A program made the position numbers and the translations under genes. Shown here piece after piece: positions 14,110 to 23,089 of a DNA stretch of 64,000 nucleotides. The stretch comes from Anaerohalosphaeraceae bacterium (GTDB lineage: Bacteria; Planctomycetota; Phycisphaerae; Sedimentisphaerales; Anaerohalosphaeraceae): positions 64,001 to 128,000 of the forward strand of contig JBNRMN010000034.1 of NCBI GenBank assembly GCA_050309605.1, given 5' to 3'. Under the pieces are notes generated by a model. The model was not told where the DNA came from and searched no databases. It saw only the letters and a program-made list of their open reading frames with translations. Numbering within the stretch: the stretch's first letter is position 1; each line of letters opens with the position of its first letter.

Positions 14110-14892
14110 TTAGTCGTCTGTTTGTCGCCGGGCGGCCAGAATCGCTGCGCCCAGGGCGCCGGTAAACTGTGGCGATTGACAGACCTTGACCGGTTGAGCC
14201 AGGACGGTTTCAAAGGCCTCGCGCATTCCCGAAATCAGCGCTGCGCCGCCGGTAAAATAGACGGGGCTTTGGATCAGGCCGCCGCCCATTGCCGCCAGTC
14301 GGCGTACGATGGCGTTTTGCACGCCGGCGATAATATTTTCGCGCGATTGGCCCTGGGCGAGCAGGCCGACGATCTCGGTCTCGGCAAAAACCACACAAAT
14401 GCTGCTGACGGCTGCGGGGGCATCGCTGCGGCGGGCGTAATCACCCAGCTCATCCAGCGGCACATCCAGCCGGTCGGCGACGACTTCCAGGAATCGCCCG
14501 GTCCCGGCGGCGCAGCGATCGTTCATCACAAAATCCCGCACCTTGCCCCGGCTGTCCAGTCGAATGAGTTTGCTGTCCTGTCCGCCGATGTCGATGACGG
14601 TGGCGACGTCCGGGTGCAGATGGGCGGCGCCGACGGCATGGCAGGTGATTTCGGTGATCGTCGTATCGCTTACATTCACGAGCCTGCGTCCGTAGCCGGT
14701 CGCGGCCACAGCGGCGACGCGACTGCGATTGATCTTTACCTCATTGAGGAGATCATAAAACAGGCGTCGAGCGCGACTCTGCTGATCGGCGCCCTGGTCG
14801 TCCAAGCGGCGGGCCAACACGGTTTGCTGTTGACTGTCCCACAGCACGGCCTTAAGCGTGCGCGAGCCGGCGTCAATGCCTGCGGTAATCAT
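14110..14892 (-). CDS. ATP-dependent [4Fe-4S] activase (HgdC/BcrAD/DCCP-R type ASKHA ATPase)
   Basis: GIDAGSRTLK, ATGYGR, IDIGGQDSK, MNDRCAAGTGRF and SSICVVFAE (two cluster Cys). Confidence 0.94.
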   Translation of the reverse strand: MITAGIDAGSRTLKAVLWDSQQQTVLARRLDDQGADQQSRARRLFYDLLNEVKINRSRVAAVAATGYGRRLVNVSDTTITEITCHAVGAAHLHPDVATVIDIGGQDSKLIRLDSRGKVRDFVMNDRCAAGTGRFLEVVADRLDVPLDELGDYARRSDAPAAVSSICVVFAETEIVGLLAQGQSRENIIAGVQNAIVRRLAAMGGGLIQSPVYFTGGAALISGMREAFETVLAQPVKVCQSPQFTGALGAAILAARRQTDD

Positions 14893-16280
14893 ATTGCTCT
14901 CCTGCTTTTTGCGGTTTCGATTAAGGCTTCCAATCGCGTTGTCAGCGATGATTCATACGGGTCAATCAGCGTGGGAATTTCGATATCCAGAACGGCAAGC
15001 GCGGTGTGGTTTCGAATGCAGTCGGCAATGAGTCTGCCTTCTGTGGCGCAGTGGCTGGCGCCGGGGATGCGGCTGAATACGACCGCCTCGGCGCCGACGG
15101 TATGAATGCTGCGCAGGATACCTCCTGCTCGTCGTTGAGCTGAGCCGGCCATCGGATCGGCCAGGGCGGCTGTGGCCAGGGCGACAAACGGGTCATCGGT
15201 TTCATCGATGGACATTAAAGCGTGCGGGAACATCAGCTCCGTGCCGCAGAGCCGTCCGCCGCACTGTTCCATCAGATTCATTGCATAGACATCTGCCGGC
15301 GGATTGACCCAGAAAACACGTACCGGTTCATTTGAAAGGACGCCGAGGTTGTTTTCGACGCGGCGGTTCACCTCGTTCAGCAGGCCGGTCAGGACGACCT
15401 CGGTCTCGTTCGGATCGGAACAAAAGTGAATCGCCAGCATCTCGGCCAGCATCATCTCCAGCGCCGGCAGGGGACATCGCGGTGCGGAGAACACCCTCAT
15501 TTTCAGGGTTCTCAAAAGCTTCCGGATGCGATTGGTTTGACGGATCGAAGTTCTGAGTTGTTGATGATCAAGCGGCCGGCCCGCAACCTCTGCGAGATAG
15601 TCGGCCACACGCATCAACTCACATCGCACATAATCGATTTGTTGTTCCGATGCCGTCAGGCCGTTGGGTCGAACACGGGCTGTTTGGCCGTTGTGCGGGT
15701 TGCGGTAATGGGGCATTTCCCACCAGAAGATTTCAAATCCGAGGCTTTCCAGCCGTGCCGCGGCGATGGAAAAATCGTCGCAGGTGGCCCCGACACTGCA
15801 CACGAGGGCGTCGGGAATCGGAAAATGCTGTCCGTTGACAAATGCCCCGACCATGGCGCGGACCGGACAAAACGCAGCGTCCAGTCCATATTGGTCGGCC
15901 AGCTCGAACAGGCCGTCTCGCTGCTGTTTGAAGCAGGGAATCCACCAGGCCGCGTCAGGATAAAACGCCGTCAGATTTTCAAAGGCGTATGCAATGACCG
16001 GTATCGTGCCGAGGTCTTTCATTGTGCCGATGATTTTGTTGCCCTGCCGGCGCCACAGCCGCAGGCGGTCTTCTTCGGTCAGTATCAAGTTCCACAAGGC
16101 CAGCGCCGCCGGCGCGTTGTCAAACCGCAGCCGGTCAAGCCGTTTGTCGCCGGCGTTAAAATGACGCTGCAGCGGCCCGCCGTAAAAGCGTTCTTTCAGG
16201 TCGGCCTCGCAAAGCTGTCGGTAGCGCTGCTGCCACTGGTCAAGCGTCAGTTGTGCAGGCGGTACGTTCATCGCTCCCAT
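14889..16280 (-). CDS. 2-hydroxyacyl-CoA dehydratase (HgdAB/BcrBC) family subunit, divergent
   Basis: FCPVRA, GATCDD, GASHC and C-terminal TRLEALIE; overlaps both neighbouring genes. Confidence 0.8.
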   Translation of the reverse strand: MGAMNVPPAQLTLDQWQQRYRQLCEADLKERFYGGPLQRHFNAGDKRLDRLRFDNAPAALALWNLILTEEDRLRLWRRQGNKIIGTMKDLGTIPVIAYAFENLTAFYPDAAWWIPCFKQQRDGLFELADQYGLDAAFCPVRAMVGAFVNGQHFPIPDALVCSVGATCDDFSIAAARLESLGFEIFWWEMPHYRNPHNGQTARVRPNGLTASEQQIDYVRCELMRVADYLAEVAGRPLDHQQLRTSIRQTNRIRKLLRTLKMRVFSAPRCPLPALEMMLAEMLAIHFCSDPNETEVVLTGLLNEVNRRVENNLGVLSNEPVRVFWVNPPADVYAMNLMEQCGGRLCGTELMFPHALMSIDETDDPFVALATAALADPMAGSAQRRAGGILRSIHTVGAEAVVFSRIPGASHCATEGRLIADCIRNHTALAVLDIEIPTLIDPYESSLTTRLEALIETAKSRRAI

Positions 16281-17119
16281 TGCTCCAAAAAAGCGTCCAG
16301 CCGCGACAGCGAAGCTGCTGACAGACGTGCGCAGGAATCGGTTTCAATGCAGATAAGCGGTACGGTAAGTCGCTTGCGCAGATCGAATATCGCCGCCTTC
16401 CAGTAATCACAGAACGGATGCCGGATGACCATCGCGCCAAGAACCCGACGGCGATGGATCGCCTCGCTGAGCCGGTCGAAAAACGGCTCAGCCGGACGCC
16501 GCCAGATCGCAGGCGTTGTCAGATAATGGTCGGCCAGCGCCGCAAGCGGAGGGCTGTTGCCCGCTGTCGGCTCGAAGGGCGTTCGCAGATTTTGCCATGC
16601 CGATTCGGTGCCGTTGAAAACAATCGGCAGACCGCGTGCGGCCGTAAGTTGAGTCAGATCGAAAAAATCGCACTCAAACAACGGCCCGCCGATCACGGCA
16701 AGCCCCTTGTCCTGCGATTCGACGGTTTGGGATGCTGAGTGATTCATTGGATCGGTCAGGAGGGCGGGATTAGTTCGACCGCCGTCCAGCTCGACCAGAC
16801 CGCGTTCCAGCCGTTCAAACTCGTCGCAAAGGATGGTGCGTGCCGTCGGGCTGCCGGTTTTGGGGATGTTCAGCAAAAACGCCGGTTTGTCCGATTGAAG
16901 GGTGTGTCTCTCATACATACGCCTCATCTGGTCGCAGCCGGTGGTAAAAACCGCCGCATCGACCTGTCGGACCGCAGCGGAAAAGGCGTTTGCCCACGCA
17001 CAAAGACCTTCGATCTCGTCGCGTCGTTCCGGCGTTGGTTCGGGACGACAGGGCGTGTGGCCGCAGGCGGTAATCAGCTCAATCGGAACAAACGGACAAC
17101 AATAACCGATTCTTGCCAT
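16268..17119 (-). CDS. Short HgdAB-family subunit
   Basis: IGYCCPFVPIELI, GLC, TTGCDQMRR, FCDYW and SRLDAFLE. Confidence 0.78.
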   Translation of the reverse strand: MARIGYCCPFVPIELITACGHTPCRPEPTPERRDEIEGLCAWANAFSAAVRQVDAAVFTTGCDQMRRMYERHTLQSDKPAFLLNIPKTGSPTARTILCDEFERLERGLVELDGGRTNPALLTDPMNHSASQTVESQDKGLAVIGGPLFECDFFDLTQLTAARGLPIVFNGTESAWQNLRTPFEPTAGNSPPLAALADHYLTTPAIWRRPAEPFFDRLSEAIHRRRVLGAMVIRHPFCDYWKAAIFDLRKRLTVPLICIETDSCARLSAASLSRLDAFLEQWER

Positions 17120-17123
17120 CGTA

Positions 17124-18269
17124 TCAGCCTGTCCTTTCGCGCAGCGTTTCGATGAGCGCTTCGATGCGCACCGACAGCCGGGGCGAATCCGACGGCGCAT
17201 AATCGGTCACGATTTTCAAATAGCCCAGACCTTTGCGCTCGGCCAGTTGACGCACATGATAGGATTCCACATCGTATGTCAGACAACCCTGCCAGACGAG
17301 ATCGATGATGCAGTCGGCGCTGTAGTCCTCGGTCAATTGATCGAGCAGCTCAAGCCGTCGCGTATTCGGCGTCATCACCGAGCAGGGCAGATGGAAATAC
17401 GTCTCGGCAATCGCCTCCAGCGGATCGATGGCCTGTTCCTCTACATCGTCAAGAACGGGTTTGATGCCGGTACAGTTTTCCATACACACCACCCGTGCAC
17501 CGGTGTGTTCGATTAAATCAACAATACGCTCGGCGCCGTGGACAGTCGGCACGCCGGTCAATAACACACGAATGCCGCTGTCGATGGTTGAACCGGCTGT
17601 GTCGGCAGATTCAAGCAATCGCTCATATTCATTCAAATCGTCCTCGATGCCGGAGATGATGCTTTTGAAGTCCAGCAGCCGTCGGCCTGTCCACGGCGGC
17701 CGGGGGCGTTTCATTTGCTCGGCCAGTTGCCGCCGCAATGCGCGTTCGCGATTCATTCGTTTGATGGCGCTGCGCAGCGCGTCGTCCGTGATACGGCACG
17801 ACAGACGGTCTTCGAGTACTGCTTTGAGTTTTCGCACCTCGGCCAGCCAATGCGTTCGGGCATTCGGGTCGTCGGCCTTTTGCGGCAGTTCAAGGATGTG
17901 CATCGGACGTTGCTGTGCCATTAGCTCGAACATTTTCTTCTTGCCGTCGCAGGTGGTCTCAGCCACGATCAAATCGGCCATAGCCAGAAAGGGGTTGCTG
18001 TCGGTGATGTGGTAGCCATAGGTGGATTTAATCAGGGGGCACAGGCCGGCGGGCAGGTCCTGTTCGGCCGGGGCAATTGTTTCCAGCGACCCGCCGCACA
18101 GACACACCGGCACACCGCCGGCGGCAAGAATCAGTTCGCGCGGTGTGTATTCGCACATAATCCCGACGATGGGACGACCCTGGGATTGGGCGGCTGTCGC
18201 AAAGGCGTAACAGTGTTGAATCATTTGATCGAAGCGGCATTGTATCTGCGGGTTTTGGTTCTGTGTCAT
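17124..18269 (-). CDS. Double-cubane cluster protein (DCCP)-like anaerobic reductase, HgdAB family
   Basis: CEYTP.ELI.AAG..PV.LC, LP..LCPLIKS.YG, ETTCDGKKKMFE, ENCTG.K, CSVMTPN, QGC.TY..E and TDY..SD...L..RIEA. The Cys pattern fits the DCCP subfamily. Confidence 0.85.
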   Translation of the reverse strand: MTQNQNPQIQCRFDQMIQHCYAFATAAQSQGRPIVGIMCEYTPRELILAAGGVPVCLCGGSLETIAPAEQDLPAGLCPLIKSTYGYHITDSNPFLAMADLIVAETTCDGKKKMFELMAQQRPMHILELPQKADDPNARTHWLAEVRKLKAVLEDRLSCRITDDALRSAIKRMNRERALRRQLAEQMKRPRPPWTGRRLLDFKSIISGIEDDLNEYERLLESADTAGSTIDSGIRVLLTGVPTVHGAERIVDLIEHTGARVVCMENCTGIKPVLDDVEEQAIDPLEAIAETYFHLPCSVMTPNTRRLELLDQLTEDYSADCIIDLVWQGCLTYDVESYHVRQLAERKGLGYLKIVTDYAPSDSPRLSVRIEALIETLRERTG

Positions 18270-18308: not shown

Positions 18309-19124
18309 TTATGCGGTTTTTACCGCGACGAACAAAGCCTGGATGATTTTGCCCTCGCGGGCCAGTTTTTCCATGGCGGCCATCTCTTTGCCGATGGTGT
18401 TGAGCAGGGTCTGGTCAAAGCCGATAATTTTCAGGGCGTCATACGTAAGCTGCGTACCGACCATTTTTTGATAGAGTTCCACATGGTCGGCAAAGCGGCC
18501 GGTGTCTTCCAGGTGCTTGACGGTGCAGCCGCTTTGTTCAAGCAGAGCGGCGTATCCGCTGCGGCTCTGAAGGTTGGGGAATTTCATAAACGCCAGTGTC
18601 CGCTGCAATTCCTCGGCGGTCATCGGCACATCGCCGAGCACCCAGTCGGTAAAGGCAATCGTACCGCCGGGGCGGACGATGCGGCAGGCCTCGGCAATCA
18701 TCGTGTCTTTGTCTTCCACATAGCACCAGGCGTCCTCGCCCCAGACGAAATCGGCGCTGGCAGCGGCAAGTCCGCTATTGCAGACATCGGCCAGGACAAA
18801 CTGAATCTTATCGTCAGAATGTTCTTCCTGGCAACGTTTTTTACCCAGTTCGACCATCGCTGCTGTGGCATCAACGCCGGTCATGGCGGCGACGCCGCAG
18901 AACCGCACGAGGAAGCGCATCCCTGCGCCGCTGCAGCAGCAGAAATCCACGCCTTTGGTACCGGGCTGAATTGCGGCCTTCTTGGCCAGATCCATCGACG
19001 AGGTCAATCCGCCGATATGAATCTGCTCGCCCATGAGCAATTCCCAGAGTTTGCCTTCGGGGCCGCTATAAACCGTTTGAACCGCTGCCAGCGGACTGTT
19101 TGATTGTTGTGCTGTTTGCTTCAT
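18309..19124 (-). CDS. Class I SAM-dependent methyltransferase (sarcosine/sterol MTase-like fold)
   Basis: GEQIHIGG, motif I variant VDFCCCSGAG, GVDAT, ADV and RIVRPGG.IAFTDW. Confidence 0.9.
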   Translation of the reverse strand: MKQTAQQSNSPLAAVQTVYSGPEGKLWELLMGEQIHIGGLTSSMDLAKKAAIQPGTKGVDFCCCSGAGMRFLVRFCGVAAMTGVDATAAMVELGKKRCQEEHSDDKIQFVLADVCNSGLAAASADFVWGEDAWCYVEDKDTMIAEACRIVRPGGTIAFTDWVLGDVPMTAEELQRTLAFMKFPNLQSRSGYAALLEQSGCTVKHLEDTGRFADHVELYQKMVGTQLTYDALKIIGFDQTLLNTIGKEMAAMEKLAREGKIIQALFVAVKTA

Positions 19125-19140
19125 TGTGTAATCCGTTGAT

Positions 19141-19174
19141 AAAAAAAGCGGGCCGAAACTGTTTTTCGACCCGC
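19141..19174 (-). terminator. Intrinsic terminator between the small Sec ORF and the methyltransferase
   Basis: Minus strand GCGGGUCGAAA-AACAG-UUUCGGCCCGC followed by U7 (11-bp stem). Confidence 0.8.
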
Positions 19175-19203
19175 CGATACTTGCTCTGTTGTGTGAGGAC
19201 TGC

Positions 19204-19464
19204 TTATCGCGTCAACTCCTCAATCGAATACCATCGGTTTTCCTGGTGGACGGTAAACGGTCCGGAATCGATGTCGATTTCGATGCGGAACCGCCTGCGG
19301 AAGTCCTCTGGCACTCGCCACGAGTACCGGCAGGTGCTGCCTCACCCATACTCCATAGAGCCGGTGCGCAGGAAACCGCCGTCTTCAAGCCGAGCTGTTT
19401 CGAAGTTTGTATAGAAAAACGAATAGCCAGGAGATTGCGAATGTTTTTTTTCGATTCCCGTCAT
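19204..19464 (-). CDS. Putative small soluble selenoprotein, 86 aa, U41-x3-C45 (absent from the ORF track)
   Basis: MTGIEKKHSQSPGYSFFYTNFETARLEDGGFLRTGSMEYG-U-GSTCRYSWRVPEDFRRRFRIEIDIDSGPFTVHQENRWYSIEELTR*. TGA at 19344-19342; the frame stays open to TAA 19204; SECIS-like hairpin; divergent from selAB. Confidence 0.78.
19310..19328 (-). promoter_or_regulatory. Bacterial SECIS-like hairpin
   Basis: GGUACUCG-UGG-CGAGUGCC, 13 nt after the UGA; G-containing apical loop. Confidence 0.75.
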
Positions 19465-19636
19465 GACTCCGATTCCAATGTGTCCGTCAATTCTTTAAAG
19501 ACGTTTGCCGTACGACGGTGTTACGAAGATTTTTGTTATTTTTTACCGTTTTAACAGAAAAAAAGCAAGCGGATTCAACGACATTTTTGTATTGTACAAA
19601 AAAAGCACAAAATGTCTTGAATTTAAGTGTCTTGGC

Positions 19637-19664
19637 TTGCTTTTTGGGCGGATCGGCGTACAAT
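19637..19664 (+). promoter_or_regulatory. Candidate sigma70 promoter for selAB
   Basis: TTGCTT-N16-TACAAT, about 46 nt upstream of the selA ATG, in an AT-rich divergent region. Confidence 0.45.
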
Positions 19665-19710
19665 AACATCGCAGGCAGGGACTGATTGATCGGACTACGA
19701 AAGGCGGCTT

Positions 19711-21111
19711 ATGGAAGCACAGATTCAGGCGCAGCTTCGGCAGATTCCTTCGGTGGATGCGGTGTTATCGCAGATTCAGGCACATCCGGCGGCCCGGCGT
19801 GTGGGTGCGGCGATGCGGACGCAACTGGTGCGCGAGGTGATTGAGACAATCCGCCGGCAGGTGCGGGACGGGACATTTTCAGCCGATGCCGATATGGCCG
19901 GGGCGGTGCGGGACCGGATCGAGCGGCGACTGGAAGCGGTGGCGGGGGTGTTTTATCGACGGGTGGTCAATGCGGCCGGGATCATTCTGCACACCGGACT
20001 GGGACGGGCGCCGCTGGCGGGTGAGGTCCTGGAGCAGATCAGCTGGCAGTTGGGCGGGTATTCGCTGTTGCAGGTGGATGTCGAGGCGGGCAAGCGGTCC
20101 TCGCGAGATGGACGGATTGAAGACTTGCTCAAACTGCTGACCGGCGCCGAAGCGGCGACCGTGGTGAATAATAACGCCGCGGCCACGGCGCTGGTGCTGA
20201 ACACCATTGCCGCAGGCAAAGAGGTCATCGTGTCGCGCGGACAGCTCGTCGAGATCGGCGGGGCGTTTCGCCTGCCGGACGTGATGGCCTTTAGCGGGGC
20301 CAGGCTGGTCGAGGTGGGTACCACCAACAAGACGCACCTGCGGGATTATGAGAATGCGATTACCGAAAACACCGCCGCGATTTTGCGGGTGCATCCGAGC
20401 AATTATAAGATTACGGGTTTTACGAGCGAAGTGCCGCTGGAGGAGATGGTCAAGCTGGCCCACGCCAACGGCCTTTTGCTGTTTGATGATGTCGGGGCCG
20501 GGTCGCTGATTGATTTTTCGCGATTTGGATTTGAAAAAGAGCCGACGTTGATGGAATCGGTCGCCGCCGGGGCCGATGTGATTACCTCCAGCGGCGACAA
20601 ACTCATCGGGGCCTCTCAGGCGGGGATCGTCCTTGGCCGTGCCGAAATCATCCAGAAGGTGCGCAAAAATCAATTTGCGCGGATCGTGCGGGTCGATAAG
20701 TTTACGCTGGCGGCGTTGGAGGCGACGCTGAAATTGTTTCTGGATGAGGCGGCGGTGTTGGAAAAGGTGCCCGCCTTGCGGCTGATGCTGCGTTCGGCGG
20801 AGGAGATTCAGCGGCAGGCCGAGCGCATCTGCGAACGGGTGCAGAGGGCCTGCCCTGATGCGTGCGTCTCACTGCTGCCGGGCCAGTCGCAAATCGGAAG
20901 CGGCTCACTGCCCGGACAAAACCTGCCGACGACCCTGGTGGCAATTGCGTCGCCGCATCAATCCGCTGCGGCACTGGCCGACACGCTGCGGGGCGCTGCG
21001 ACGCCGGTCTTTACGCGCATCGGCGATGATCGTGTGCTGATTGACCCGCGCACGCTGCTGGACGGCGATGAGGCGATTTTGATTGAGACGCTGGTTGAAA
21101 TTCTGCATTAA
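19711..21111 (+). CDS. selA: L-seryl-tRNA(Sec) selenium transferase
   Basis: VVNA.G.ILHT.LGRAPL, VNNNAAA, SRGQLVEIGG.FR.PDVM, EVGTTN.TH and SGDKL.G (PLP Lys). Confidence 0.97.
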   Translation: MEAQIQAQLRQIPSVDAVLSQIQAHPAARRVGAAMRTQLVREVIETIRRQVRDGTFSADADMAGAVRDRIERRLEAVAGVFYRRVVNAAGIILHTGLGRAPLAGEVLEQISWQLGGYSLLQVDVEAGKRSSRDGRIEDLLKLLTGAEAATVVNNNAAATALVLNTIAAGKEVIVSRGQLVEIGGAFRLPDVMAFSGARLVEVGTTNKTHLRDYENAITENTAAILRVHPSNYKITGFTSEVPLEEMVKLAHANGLLLFDDVGAGSLIDFSRFGFEKEPTLMESVAAGADVITSSGDKLIGASQAGIVLGRAEIIQKVRKNQFARIVRVDKFTLAALEATLKLFLDEAAVLEKVPALRLMLRSAEEIQRQAERICERVQRACPDACVSLLPGQSQIGSGSLPGQNLPTTLVAIASPHQSAAALADTLRGAATPVFTRIGDDRVLIDPRTLLDGDEAILIETLVEILH

Positions 21112-21181: not shown

Positions 21182-23089
21182 ATGACCCAAATCAACATCA
21201 CTCTCGGCACCGCCGGGCATATTGACCACGGCAAGACGGCGTTGATCCGCTTGCTGACCGGCTGTGAGACCGACCGGCTCAAGGTCGAAAAACAGCGTGG
21301 CATGAGCATTGAGCTGGGCTTTGCCCCGTGTCTGCTGGGGGATAGGGAGGTGGGGATCGTCGATGTCCCCGGACACGAACATTTCATCAAGACGATGGTC
21401 GCCGGCGCCGCGGGCATTGACGGAGTGCTGTTTGTCGTGGCCGCCGATGACGGGATTATGCCTCAGACGCGCGAGCATCTGGAGATTTTGACCCTGCTGG
21501 GCGTGCGGCACGGCCTGACCGTCCTGACCAAGATCGATCGTGTTTCGGAGGAGCGCGTCGAGGCAGCGATCGATGAACTCCGAACGTTTTTGTGCGGCAC
21601 GTTTTTGCATGATGCCCCGATTTGCCCGATGTCCAGCATCACCGGGCAGGGATTCGACGGATTCTATACGGCGTTGAAAGATGTGGTCGCTTCCATATGC
21701 CCCAAAAGCATTGACGGGGTGTTTCGTCTGCCGGTGGAACGGGCGTTTTCGGTCAAGGGCTTCGGCACAGTGCTCAGCGGCATCCCCGCCGCCGGTTCGG
21801 CACAGATCGGCCAGGAAGTCGTCCTGCTGCCGAGCGGACAAACCGGACGCATCAAGGCGATACAGGTTTACGGCAAGCCGTCCGAATACGTGCGAAGCGG
21901 CCAGTGTGCGGCGCTGAATATCCCGCAGATGGATTATCGTACTATCCGACGGGGCGACGTGTTGACGGTAGAGGGGTATTTTTCTCCGACGCAGTGGTTT
22001 TTGTGTGCCGCCGCGGTGCTGCCCGGTCAGTCGCTGCCTGTTAAAAACGGTGCTGAGATGAGGTTCCACACCGGCACGGCGGATGTTGCGGCCAATGTTT
22101 ATCGTGTTGAGCGAGACGAGTACTTTGCCGACGGCGACTTCCTGCTTCAGATTCGTGCGCATACGCCGCTTGTGGCCGCCCCCGGCGACCGGTTTATCCT
22201 GCGGTCGCTGTCGCCGATGCGTACCGTCGGCGGGGGGCGCATCCTTCAGGCGATGTCATCGCGTCTTCGGTATGCTCACGGGCGGGGGCCGGCCTATGCC
22301 AAAGCACTGGCCGAGGCGCAGCGGAATGAAACGGCATTTGTCGCTTTTGCGGTGGAATCGGCGGCGTCCGGCGTCGCACGGCTTGATGATCTCACGTCGT
22401 TTACCAAGCAGAAGCCTGAGCGGGTGCGGCGGCTGCTGGCGGATTTGCTGCAGACACAAACCGTTGTCGCTTTGTCCGGCGATGTGTATATCCACGCCCG
22501 AAAACTGTCGGTGATGTGCCGGCACATCACCGAAACGCTTGAGCAGTTTCACGCCGACCATCCCGAACGGCCGGGCATGGATGCGGAAGCTTTAGCCGAG
22601 CGGCTTGAACTGGGCAAAGGCGTTTTTGATGCCCTGCTGGAAGTTGCCCTGAAACAAGGGACGGTCGTGCGGCGTCTGGATCGGCTGGCACTGCCGTCGC
22701 ACACCGAAACCTGCAATCCGGCTCTGGCAAAACGGCTCCGGCAAATCGAAACAGCGTTCCTGAAAAACCTGTTTGCTCCTCCCGGCCTCAATGAACTGAC
22801 GGCCGAGTCCGGCCTGACCCCATCACAAATCCGGGAGGCCATTACGATTTTGATCGAACAGAAAAAACTATTTTATGTGGACCGAACGATGGTATTCCAC
22901 GCCGAGGCCGTAAAGCAGGCCAAACGCCGTATTGCCGAGCATATTCAGGGCCAAGGGCGGGGCCGTCTGGAAAGCGTCGCATTCAAATACTTGATTGATA
23001 CGACCCGAAAATACGCCATTCCGCTGCTGGATTATATGGACAAAATCGGCTTTACCCGTCGGGTCGGCAATACACGTTACTTGAAATAA
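21182..23089 (+). CDS. selB: Selenocysteine-specific elongation factor
   Basis: GTAGHIDHGKT, RGMSIELGF, DVPGHEHF and TKID; C-terminal winged helix TRKYAIPLLDY (SECIS binding). Confidence 0.97.
   Translation: MTQINITLGTAGHIDHGKTALIRLLTGCETDRLKVEKQRGMSIELGFAPCLLGDREVGIVDVPGHEHFIKTMVAGAAGIDGVLFVVAADDGIMPQTREHLEILTLLGVRHGLTVLTKIDRVSEERVEAAIDELRTFLCGTFLHDAPICPMSSITGQGFDGFYTALKDVVASICPKSIDGVFRLPVERAFSVKGFGTVLSGIPAAGSAQIGQEVVLLPSGQTGRIKAIQVYGKPSEYVRSGQCAALNIPQMDYRTIRRGDVLTVEGYFSPTQWFLCAAAVLPGQSLPVKNGAEMRFHTGTADVAANVYRVERDEYFADGDFLLQIRAHTPLVAAPGDRFILRSLSPMRTVGGGRILQAMSSRLRYAHGRGPAYAKALAEAQRNETAFVAFAVESAASGVARLDDLTSFTKQKPERVRRLLADLLQTQTVVALSGDVYIHARKLSVMCRHITETLEQFHADHPERPGMDAEALAERLELGKGVFDALLEVALKQGTVVRRLDRLALPSHTETCNPALAKRLRQIETAFLKNLFAPPGLNELTAESGLTPSQIREAITILIEQKKLFYVDRTMVFHAEAVKQAKRRIAEHIQGQGRGRLESVAFKYLIDTTRKYAIPLLDYMDKIGFTRRVGNTRYLK

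Follow-up and report, generated by a model that had tools for sequence, protein, structure and literature searches.

A short reading frame with an in-frame TGA lies divergent from selA and upstream of a methyltransferase operon in a 64,000-nucleotide (nt) stretch of an Anaerohalosphaeraceae bacterium (assembly GCA_050309605.1, contig JBNRMN010000034.1, positions 64,001 to 128,000 of the forward strand; hereafter the window). Does this frame encode a small selenoprotein, or is it kept for another reason? An initial annotation, made from the sequence of the window, proposed a soluble, stand-alone selenoprotein with no known fold. We followed up this proposal and favor another reading, namely that the frame is a translated, selenocysteine (Sec)-recoding leader open reading frame (ORF) of the operon encoding the methyltransferase, HGD-D family proteins and an activase. 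We hold this statement in full, leader role included, only tentatively, as a serious possibility that falls slightly short of an even chance. That the locus contains a real Sec-recoding unit and, at the same time, a truncated member of a selenoprotein family is highly probable. From the sequence comparisons described below, selection appears to act on an RNA-level unit comprising a start codon, the UGA, the Sec insertion sequence (SECIS) and a terminator, and not on a folded protein.

The frame and the elements associated with it are as follows.

19204..19464, minus strand: frame with the TGA read through, 86 codons, C-terminal part of a Sec module domain, 5'-truncated copy
19342..19344, minus strand: Sec codon 41, the in-frame TGA
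19354..19356, minus strand: internal ATG (Met37), four codons 5' of the UGA
19297..19353, minus strand: UGA-SECIS unit, match to covariance model R1 at 69.2 bits
19310..19328, minus strand: SECIS apical hairpin, 8 bp with a UGG apex, beginning 13 nt after the UGA
19204-19206, minus strand: TAA stop, 45 codons after the TGA
19140..19175, minus strand: intrinsic terminator, 12-pair stem with 7 G-C pairs and a T7 tail
19591..19618, minus strand: sigma-70-like promoter match, weak (9/12 positions)

Much of what the initial annotation had described at the level of the letters was borne out. The frame has 86 codons with the TGA at codon 41 and continues for 45 more codons to a TAA; Cys follows the Sec at a distance of four residues (codon 45), giving the motif U-G-S-T-C. 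The UxxxC spacing differs from that of thioredoxin-type UxxC proteins, as had been pointed out, and no thioredoxin-type Pfam match was found. Read with translation table 11, the frame divides into ORFs of 40 amino acids (aa; 19342..19464) and 36 aa (19204..19314), which agrees with the expectation that standard gene callers would split it into fragments of 45 aa or less. The antisense frames over 19204..19464 are likewise open. Candidate start codons are codon 1, at 19464, and Met37, which would give a 50-aa product; the arrangement M-E-Y-G-U around Met37 is also seen in genus g18. The terminator lies about 28 nt past the TAA of the frame, and its stem ends 23 nt 5' of the ATG of the methyltransferase gene.

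The TGA is real and not a sequencing error, because contigs from independent runs cover 19342-19344 without a difference. Contigs from runs X4, X8 and X9, which belong to three independent metagenome studies and represent a strain about 97% identical to the window, lie on 19050-19750 and showed no difference at the three positions. Run X10 contained identical pieces spanning the TGA (0 other letters), and a genome of the same genus (G002) has a TGA at the equivalent place.

The hairpin that follows the UGA, GGUACUCG-UGG-CGAGUGCC, forms eight of eight pairs, one of them G-U. A bacterial SECIS in the bSECISearch model is a hairpin shortly 3' of the UGA with a G in its apical loop, and the initial annotation had recognized this geometry in the window. 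The fold of the single sequence, which had been suggested as a check, was undistinctive (z = -1.12 for 71 nt; 25 of 200 shuffled sequences folded equally well), and support for the SECIS was therefore taken from comparative data, which did uphold the helix. Across 40 distinct related copies, aligned without gaps, the 8-pair helix was paired in 92.5% of cells and five of the eight pairs had changes in both partners (35 cells). In 500 shuffles these values were never attained, and sliding the partner strand by 1-3 columns left 22-55% pairing. Some of the stem substitutions swap the encoded amino acid yet keep the base pair.

A covariance model of the unit matched the window once (69.2 bits, E 5.6e-14). 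Run on the 3.4-Mb genome, it found exactly three elements: the frame described here and two full-length paralogs on contig C2, where both elements lie inside long genes of the same family. Rfam gave no match within 18900-19800 at E<=1. The genome encodes the Sec machinery, with selA, selB, a tRNA-Sec (74.4 bits) and selD (374.7 bits). Judged from these comparisons, the UGA and hairpin constitute a real bacterial SECIS and Sec-recoding unit of the SelB-dependent type, at which Sec incorporation is predicted.

The unit may adopt a second structure. The sequence GAG UAU GG just before the UGA (19345-19353) is complementary to the 5' arm of the SECIS (19321-19328, minus strand), so that the two could pair in an alternative hairpin whose loop would hold the UGA. 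The minimum free energy (MFE) folds of the leaders of the window's genome (G000) and of G002 prefer this hairpin, and in them the SECIS 3' arm pairs with the downstream sequence UGGUAUUCG. A consensus fold of the window, a sister strain and G002 (RNAalifold) left 28 of 41 variable columns unpaired; its structure was derived from the same three sequences, and we gave it no weight.

The unit belongs to a family of Sec-containing modules. We searched 61 related genomes in six frames, using the read-through product as query (E<1e-3), and obtained 49 matches in 18 genomes, all 49 with an in-frame TGA and with identities up to 77%. All 42 distinct copies extracted had TGA at the Sec column, under an extraction pattern that permitted Cys too. 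The copies are conserved before and after the Sec, and their core is EYG-U-GG(T/V)C-(R/S)(Y/L)SWR(V/E)P, or EYG-U-GGTC-RYSWRVP in short form. Sec or Cys, the Cys at +4 and S-W-R-x-P are invariant or nearly invariant columns, and the window copy has them. The initial annotation had named three findings that would count against its candidate, namely conservation restricted to the upstream side, other codons at the Sec position and a sequencing error; none of the three came out against it.

The frames that host the module in these genomes are about 220, 390-520 and 930-990 aa long, and the longer proteins begin, by eye, with a signal- or transmembrane (TM)-like segment. Two full-length members are encoded elsewhere in the window's own genome.

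Contig C2, around 25926: full-length paralog L002, genome G000
Contig C2, around 30594: full-length paralog L003, genome G000

In one of these frames (about 950-990 aa), the Sec module is central, and F5/8-type-C and LamG domains come after it. In the other (about 390 aa), the module is close to the N-terminus, with many hydrophobic segments behind it.

No Pfam or NCBIfam model covers the module, either in the window copy or in its relatives. A profile search of 1.84 billion representative proteins returned 294 matches at E<=1e-3. Among the stored proteins there were 139 matches to the module, of which 47 start or stop right at the Sec column, the pattern left by gene callers that halt at the TGA. 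The other 92 span the column. Cys is the commonest residue there (26 proteins), mostly with a second Cys at +4, followed by Gly (11), Trp (5), Arg, Ser, Leu and others; Gly and Trp could stem from translation of the TGA with other genetic codes. An AhpC-TSA/Redoxin domain is fused to one Cys-form, which fits thiol or selenol redox chemistry for the motif, as far as domain fusion can indicate. Word-index protein searches recovered two fragments of nearly the same length as the frame and seven longer proteins; this method is weak for the family, and the exhaustive profile search is the better census. Public records call the relatives only "hypothetical protein" (Phycisphaerales, Anaerohalosphaera).

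An AlphaFold2 (AF2) model of the module shows a small beta-sandwich in which a long loop holds the Sec (predicted local distance difference test score, pLDDT, 75.6). Foldseek found no match to this model in the PDB at E<=0.001. The VIA wide fold search returned generic immunoglobulin (Ig)-like, macroglobulin, FN3 or CopC-type sandwiches, with a best Z of 5.3, among which no specific relative could be named. The predicted architecture is all-beta and Ig-like.

Neither the module motif nor a "UxxxC" family was found in the literature searched, which included PMC2398784, PMC9312934, a 2026 review and the deep-Sep paper; the text matches listed for the motif were unrelated nucleotide sequence, and no paper combining Phycisphaerae with selenocysteine was found among the best search matches. 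The parent family is apparently undescribed; it was not compared by sequence with the 111 families of BSepDB, where an entry under an uninformative name is possible. We consider the Sec/Cys family a credible new selenoprotein family whose members are predicted from their sequences to be exported. Four giant proteins (P0002, P0003, P0010 and P0015; 3,000-6,500 aa) match only positions of about 50-85 of the profile, in up to 12 repeated stretches; these may be low-complexity matches or a repeat akin to the module's second half. A short copy on a 2.5-kb contig (L011, contig C404 of G024) starts 13 codons before the UGA where a genome of the same genus has a longer frame (L010, G034), and may be truly truncated or have arisen where the assembly joined sequences at the conserved core.

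Measured against this family, the window copy is incomplete. The conserved N-terminal portion of the domain, G..GE.Y...NG...P.F.I with the strands before it, is missing, save at most a diverged remnant of one or two strands. By eye, its residues 1-40 contain no hydrophobic segment, hence no signal or TM segment, and the full-length relatives start with one. Because neither a complete domain nor an export signal was found, the window copy is, on sequence features, not a full member of the EYG-U-GGTC-RYSWRVP family. The initial annotation is thus partly supported: the recoding unit, which lies beside selA and selB, is genuine, but a stand-alone soluble selenoprotein is not supported.

Comparison with the syntenic ortholog of G002 showed where the loss begins. 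The window DNA is unalignable upstream of a point about 12 nt before the Met37 ATG, and only codons ~33-86 align; the N-terminal 32 residues do not. From this point to the stop the two sequences are 87% identical (139/159), and the terminator is conserved too. An AF2 model of the 86-aa product (pLDDT 73.6) has strands at residues 13-19, 30-36 and 58-64 and a terminal helix. Residues ~12-36 may therefore be a diverged remnant of two more strands, with which the domain would still be partial.

In the block conserved between the window's genome and G002, the ratio of non-synonymous to synonymous differences per site (pN/pS) was 0.74, a value that rests on about 20 substitutions (14.5 non-synonymous, Nd, and 5.5 synonymous, Sd). 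Third codon positions were 83% identical in this block and 56% identical in the neighboring selA. Together, these values indicate that it is the nucleotide sequence of the block, and not a protein, that is conserved, and we conclude from them that the peptide of the window frame is not under purifying selection. The sister strain, which is that of the three metagenome studies, differs from the window at seven codons past the UGA, six of them non-synonymous (S43G, R57G, D64S, T71A, N76E and T85M) and one synonymous. The family consensus, U-G-G-T-C and F-x-G-x-F, is present in the sister strain as well as in G002. The U-G-S-T-C motif that had drawn attention to the frame is indeed present in the window, but its S is a variant of the window strain. 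The same variant weakens the lower stem of the SECIS (-24.5 kcal/mol in the window and -26.4 kcal/mol in the sister strain). Codons 1-40 (19345-19464) had no strain differences in 120 nt, compared with 19 in 374 nt of the flanks (Fisher p = 0.006). These codons are invariant between the strains despite being unalignable with G002, a genome of the same genus.

The position of the frame is conserved across genomes. At 12 loci we found the same order of selA, a divergent Sec-ORF, an intrinsic terminator (12-14 bp stem, T6-T9) and a next gene, which is either the methyltransferase gene or a DUF3034-like gene preceding it. Where the start of this next gene could be placed, it lies about 12-55 nt after the terminator. 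Four genomes (G012, G026, G036 and G059) have a full-length ORF of 216-229 aa in the slot. Short forms occupy it in the other eight (G000, G002, G016, G023, G033, G039, G040 and G046), which belong to five genera of three families; G023 has full-length genes besides its short form. A DUF3034-like gene with a signal peptide stands between the terminator and the methyltransferase gene in G002, G023, G026, G033 and G059, and is not found in the window.

L004:698-1393 (G002): DUF3034-like gene; others at L084, L085, L086 and L087

What the short forms share is the recoding unit. All eight retain the TGA, preceded at a distance of 4-21 codons by an in-frame ATG, seven have 7-8 of the 8 hairpin pairs in register, and seven keep the Cys at +4. 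The G016 hairpin shows a compensatory change from A-U to G-C. In G039 one nucleotide has been deleted from the spacer that follows the TGA; the frame is shifted, and the hairpin, its sequence intact, lies one base nearer the TGA. This copy scores only 28.5 bits. The tails past the hairpin range from family-like in the window's genus (g1) through diverged (g26 and g18) to unrelated (G016 and G039).

Sister genomes within three genera allowed the rate of change to be compared. In the g1 pair, identity was 100% at -12..-1, 93% in the SECIS, 80% in the tail and 84% in the terminator, as opposed to 28-31% just upstream; selA of the same pair was 78% identical overall and 56% at third codon positions. 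The leader of the g18 pair was 92-100% identical versus 83% for the next gene, and that of the g26 pair 79-92% versus 77.5% for the methyltransferase gene. In these three pairs, the unit equals or surpasses the neighboring protein genes in conservation and shows no neutral decay.

The frame goes back to a gene of the exported family with the Ig-like beta-sandwich module that has lost its 5' part, and it remains as a short ORF in the leader. For its mode of action we propose the following. Ribosomes would start at an ATG a few codons 5' of the UGA. With Sec-tRNA(Sec)-SelB available, the UGA would be decoded and translation would remain coupled to transcription through the leader; with selenium in short supply, translation would halt at the UGA, and the transcript would be uncoupled and truncated. 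The Sec-linked operon downstream would in this way be expressed according to the supply of selenium. The comparisons show the truncation of a family member, the recoding unit, the conserved architecture of the locus and its conservation at nucleotide level; we infer both the translation of the short ORF, with Sec inserted at the UGA, and any regulation by it. A more specific version, in which a truncated selenoprotein gene was co-opted as a Sec-decoding leader that reports the availability of Sec-tRNA and SelB to the methyltransferase/HGD-D operon, and in which the parent family is maybe a main reason why this Phycisphaerae-like clade keeps its Sec machinery, strikes us as somewhat unlikely.

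A number of observations weigh against a leader function. In MFE folds of 12 leaders the terminator hairpin formed by itself and no conserved antiterminator pairing was found; with a strong terminator that forms unaided and no antiterminator, passage even with the Sec decoded is hard to explain. The ORF stops 26-45 nt before the terminator stem, which is too far for a terminating ribosome to mask the stem. Since a full-length protein gene fills the slot in four genomes, the terminator may be that gene's own. It is possible that the operon promoter lies inside the ORF or overlaps the terminator, and the upstream sigma-70-like match is the only one and at chance level (1 site versus 0.8 expected). 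The methyltransferase locus of G024, on a 4-kb contig, has no UGA-SECIS unit. Some features also look like those of a protein: the tail is still in frame and module-like in g1 and g26, the AF2 model of the 86-aa product is a moderately confident partial sandwich, and the invariance of codons 1-40 between strains would fit coding constraint. Finally, the comparative case draws on few data, with some 20 substitutions behind the pN/pS value and three sister pairs behind the conservation of the unit, and the short forms were found by similarity to the core, the part that is easiest to detect after decay.

Three other explanations have to be set beside the leader ORF. The frame might be no gene at all, with the TGA an ordinary stop or the DNA non-coding, and with the open frame and the hairpin there by chance. 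The undistinctive single-sequence fold and the open antisense frames fit this idea, which is nevertheless contradicted by the homology that spans the TGA, the covariation of the helix and the covariance model match; in addition, only three such elements occur in 3.4 Mb, the other two inside long family genes. We regard it as extremely improbable. The reading closest to the initial annotation, a stand-alone small cytoplasmic selenoprotein or selenopeptide of 86 aa (or 50 aa from Met37) with a redox or metal-binding UxxxC pair, perhaps acting with the downstream methyltransferase and HGD-D enzymes, has more to recommend it. The frame is open on either side of a validated UGA and SECIS, and the Cys at +4 persists in seven of eight short forms; the family-like tails of g1 and g26, the consensus G-G-T-C and F-x-G-x-F in the sister strain and G002, the three strands and terminal helix of the AF2 model, the invariant codons 1-40 and the redox chemistry suggested by the Redoxin-fused Cys-form all point the same way. 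However, the product lacks the signal or TM segment of the full-length relatives examined and the N-terminal part of the domain, its first 32 residues do not align with G002, and the changes past the UGA are those of a sequence without protein-level constraint (pN/pS as above; six non-synonymous and one synonymous differences between strains). The tails are unrelated across lineages, and in G039 the frame is shifted right after the UGA with the hairpin intact. Because the conserved peptide core is encoded by the nucleotides of the SECIS, its conservation cannot be credited to the protein. A stand-alone soluble selenoprotein of novel fold is not supported, the frame being a truncated module whose slot in other lineages keeps only the UGA, hairpin and terminator, and we consider the small selenoprotein unlikely.

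The truncation would also fit a non-functional remnant, that is, an ancestral selA-adjacent module gene that lost its 5' part and whose UGA, SECIS and own terminator are decaying without a role. The window strain is altered at positions conserved in the family (G to S beside the Sec, and G to R in F-x-G-x-F), its SECIS lower stem is weaker than that of the sister strain, tail decay is graded across lineages down to the low-scoring G039 copy, and a sample collected by its most detectable part is biased. Against decay stand the sister-genome comparisons, in which the unit matches or exceeds the neighboring protein genes while the DNA just upstream is unalignable, and the excess identity at third positions relative to selA. 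The TGA with its in-frame ATG was retained in every short form and the hairpin with 7-8 of 8 pairs (in G039 allowing a 1-nt shift), the G016 hairpin has a compensatory change, and the short forms are spread over five genera of three families. We find a functionless remnant quite unlikely.

The leader ORF that we favor would serve an operon whose genes, like the Sec genes on the other side, are arranged as follows.

19711-21111, plus strand: selA, divergent from the Sec-ORF
21182-23089, plus strand: selB, after selA
18309..19124, minus strand: class-I S-adenosylmethionine (SAM) methyltransferase, the first gene past the terminator
17124-18269, minus strand: HGD-D family gene
16268-17200, minus strand: HGD-D family gene
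14889-16280, minus strand: HGD-D family gene
14110-14892, minus strand: BcrAD/BadFG-type ATPase

Among the 61 relatives, selA was found in 16, of which 15 also have the module (the exception is G019); completeness is 76-83% in the three genomes that have the module and no selA. Orthologs of the methyltransferase occur in 13 relatives, 12 of them selA-positive and the remaining one the incomplete, module-positive G024. As the methyltransferase ortholog is confined to selA- or module-positive relatives, the operon seems to be part of the selenium trait. In two nearly complete genomes of the window's genus (G001, 95%, and G003, 99%) these queries detected no selA, no module and no methyltransferase, suggesting that the selenium-linked set was gained or lost together within one genus. 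A search of the whole G000 genome with PF00384, the one query tried, gave no match to a molybdopterin oxidoreductase of the formate dehydrogenase alpha type. A crude census of single-TGA frames with a hairpin in the same genome gave 10 candidates, one of which is the known C2 paralog and nine of which are unchecked. The selenoproteome of G000 may be small and dominated by the module family. As the module tracks selA and no formate dehydrogenase was detected with this one query, the family may be a major reason why these bacteria retain selenocysteine.

The parent family would add to the catalogue of selenoproteins a predicted exported type with UxxxC spacing, signal or TM segments, lectin-type domains and a SECIS of its own. 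The window copy and the seven other short forms suggest that a UGA-SECIS unit can live on in an operon leader as a cis element after its protein is lost. If it senses the supply of selenium, it would be a simple, portable and naturally evolved Sec-dependent switch, an amino-acid-sensing attenuator built on stop-codon recoding, and the matching of selenium-linked metabolism to Sec-decoding capacity would become directly testable. For annotation, the locus is a warning that a validated UGA and SECIS alone do not define a functional selenoprotein.

A regulatory SECIS-type hairpin near selAB would have a precedent. Thanbichler and Boeck reportedly described in 2002 a SECIS-like element in the 5' leader of the E. 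coli selAB mRNA that binds SelB and represses selA translation. The likeness lies in a hairpin of this type beside selAB with a regulatory, non-selenoprotein use, which for the window is our proposal. However, the E. coli element is on the selAB transcript and has no decoded UGA, whereas the unit in the window is on the opposite strand, has an in-frame UGA and a start codon, and faces a different operon. An E. coli-type selAB leader element was ruled out on the ground that the unit lies on the strand opposite selA.

As a protein motif, the nearest described counterpart is the UGSC-containing selenoprotein family, characterized as having UxxC, no Pfam domain, a presumed redox function and probably a thioredoxin fold (PMC2398784; listed in PMC9312934). 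To the extent of that description, the module resembles it in having no Pfam domain and a U-G-S near a Cys. It is set apart from the published description by the UxxxC spacing, the predicted all-beta Ig-like sandwich and the S, which is only a strain variant. A thioredoxin-fold UxxC/CxxU selenoprotein was ruled out by the spacing, by the lack of a thioredoxin-type Pfam match and by the all-beta model.

In its layout, the leader proposed here recalls the trp-type leader-peptide transcription attenuators outlined in the introduction of PMC3892789. At the 12 loci, a short ORF with a candidate regulatory codon is followed by an intrinsic terminator and by structural genes without an obvious promoter of their own. 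Unlike trp-type attenuators, the 12 leaders had no mutually exclusive antiterminator in their MFE folds, and the stop is 26-45 nt from the stem.

The closest mechanistic parallel is fdhF(Sec) of Treponema primitia, in which a shortage of selenium breaks the coupling of translation and transcription at the UGA, and the transcript ends prematurely near the SECIS (Matson et al., mBio 2013, PMC3892789). The use of a Sec-UGA and SECIS as a selenium checkpoint is, by analogy, the mechanism that we propose. In T. primitia the UGA and SECIS lie inside a full-length enzyme gene and control its own 3' part, whereas the unit in the window, known from sequence alone, would be a short truncated ORF that leads other genes and is joined to a canonical intrinsic terminator.

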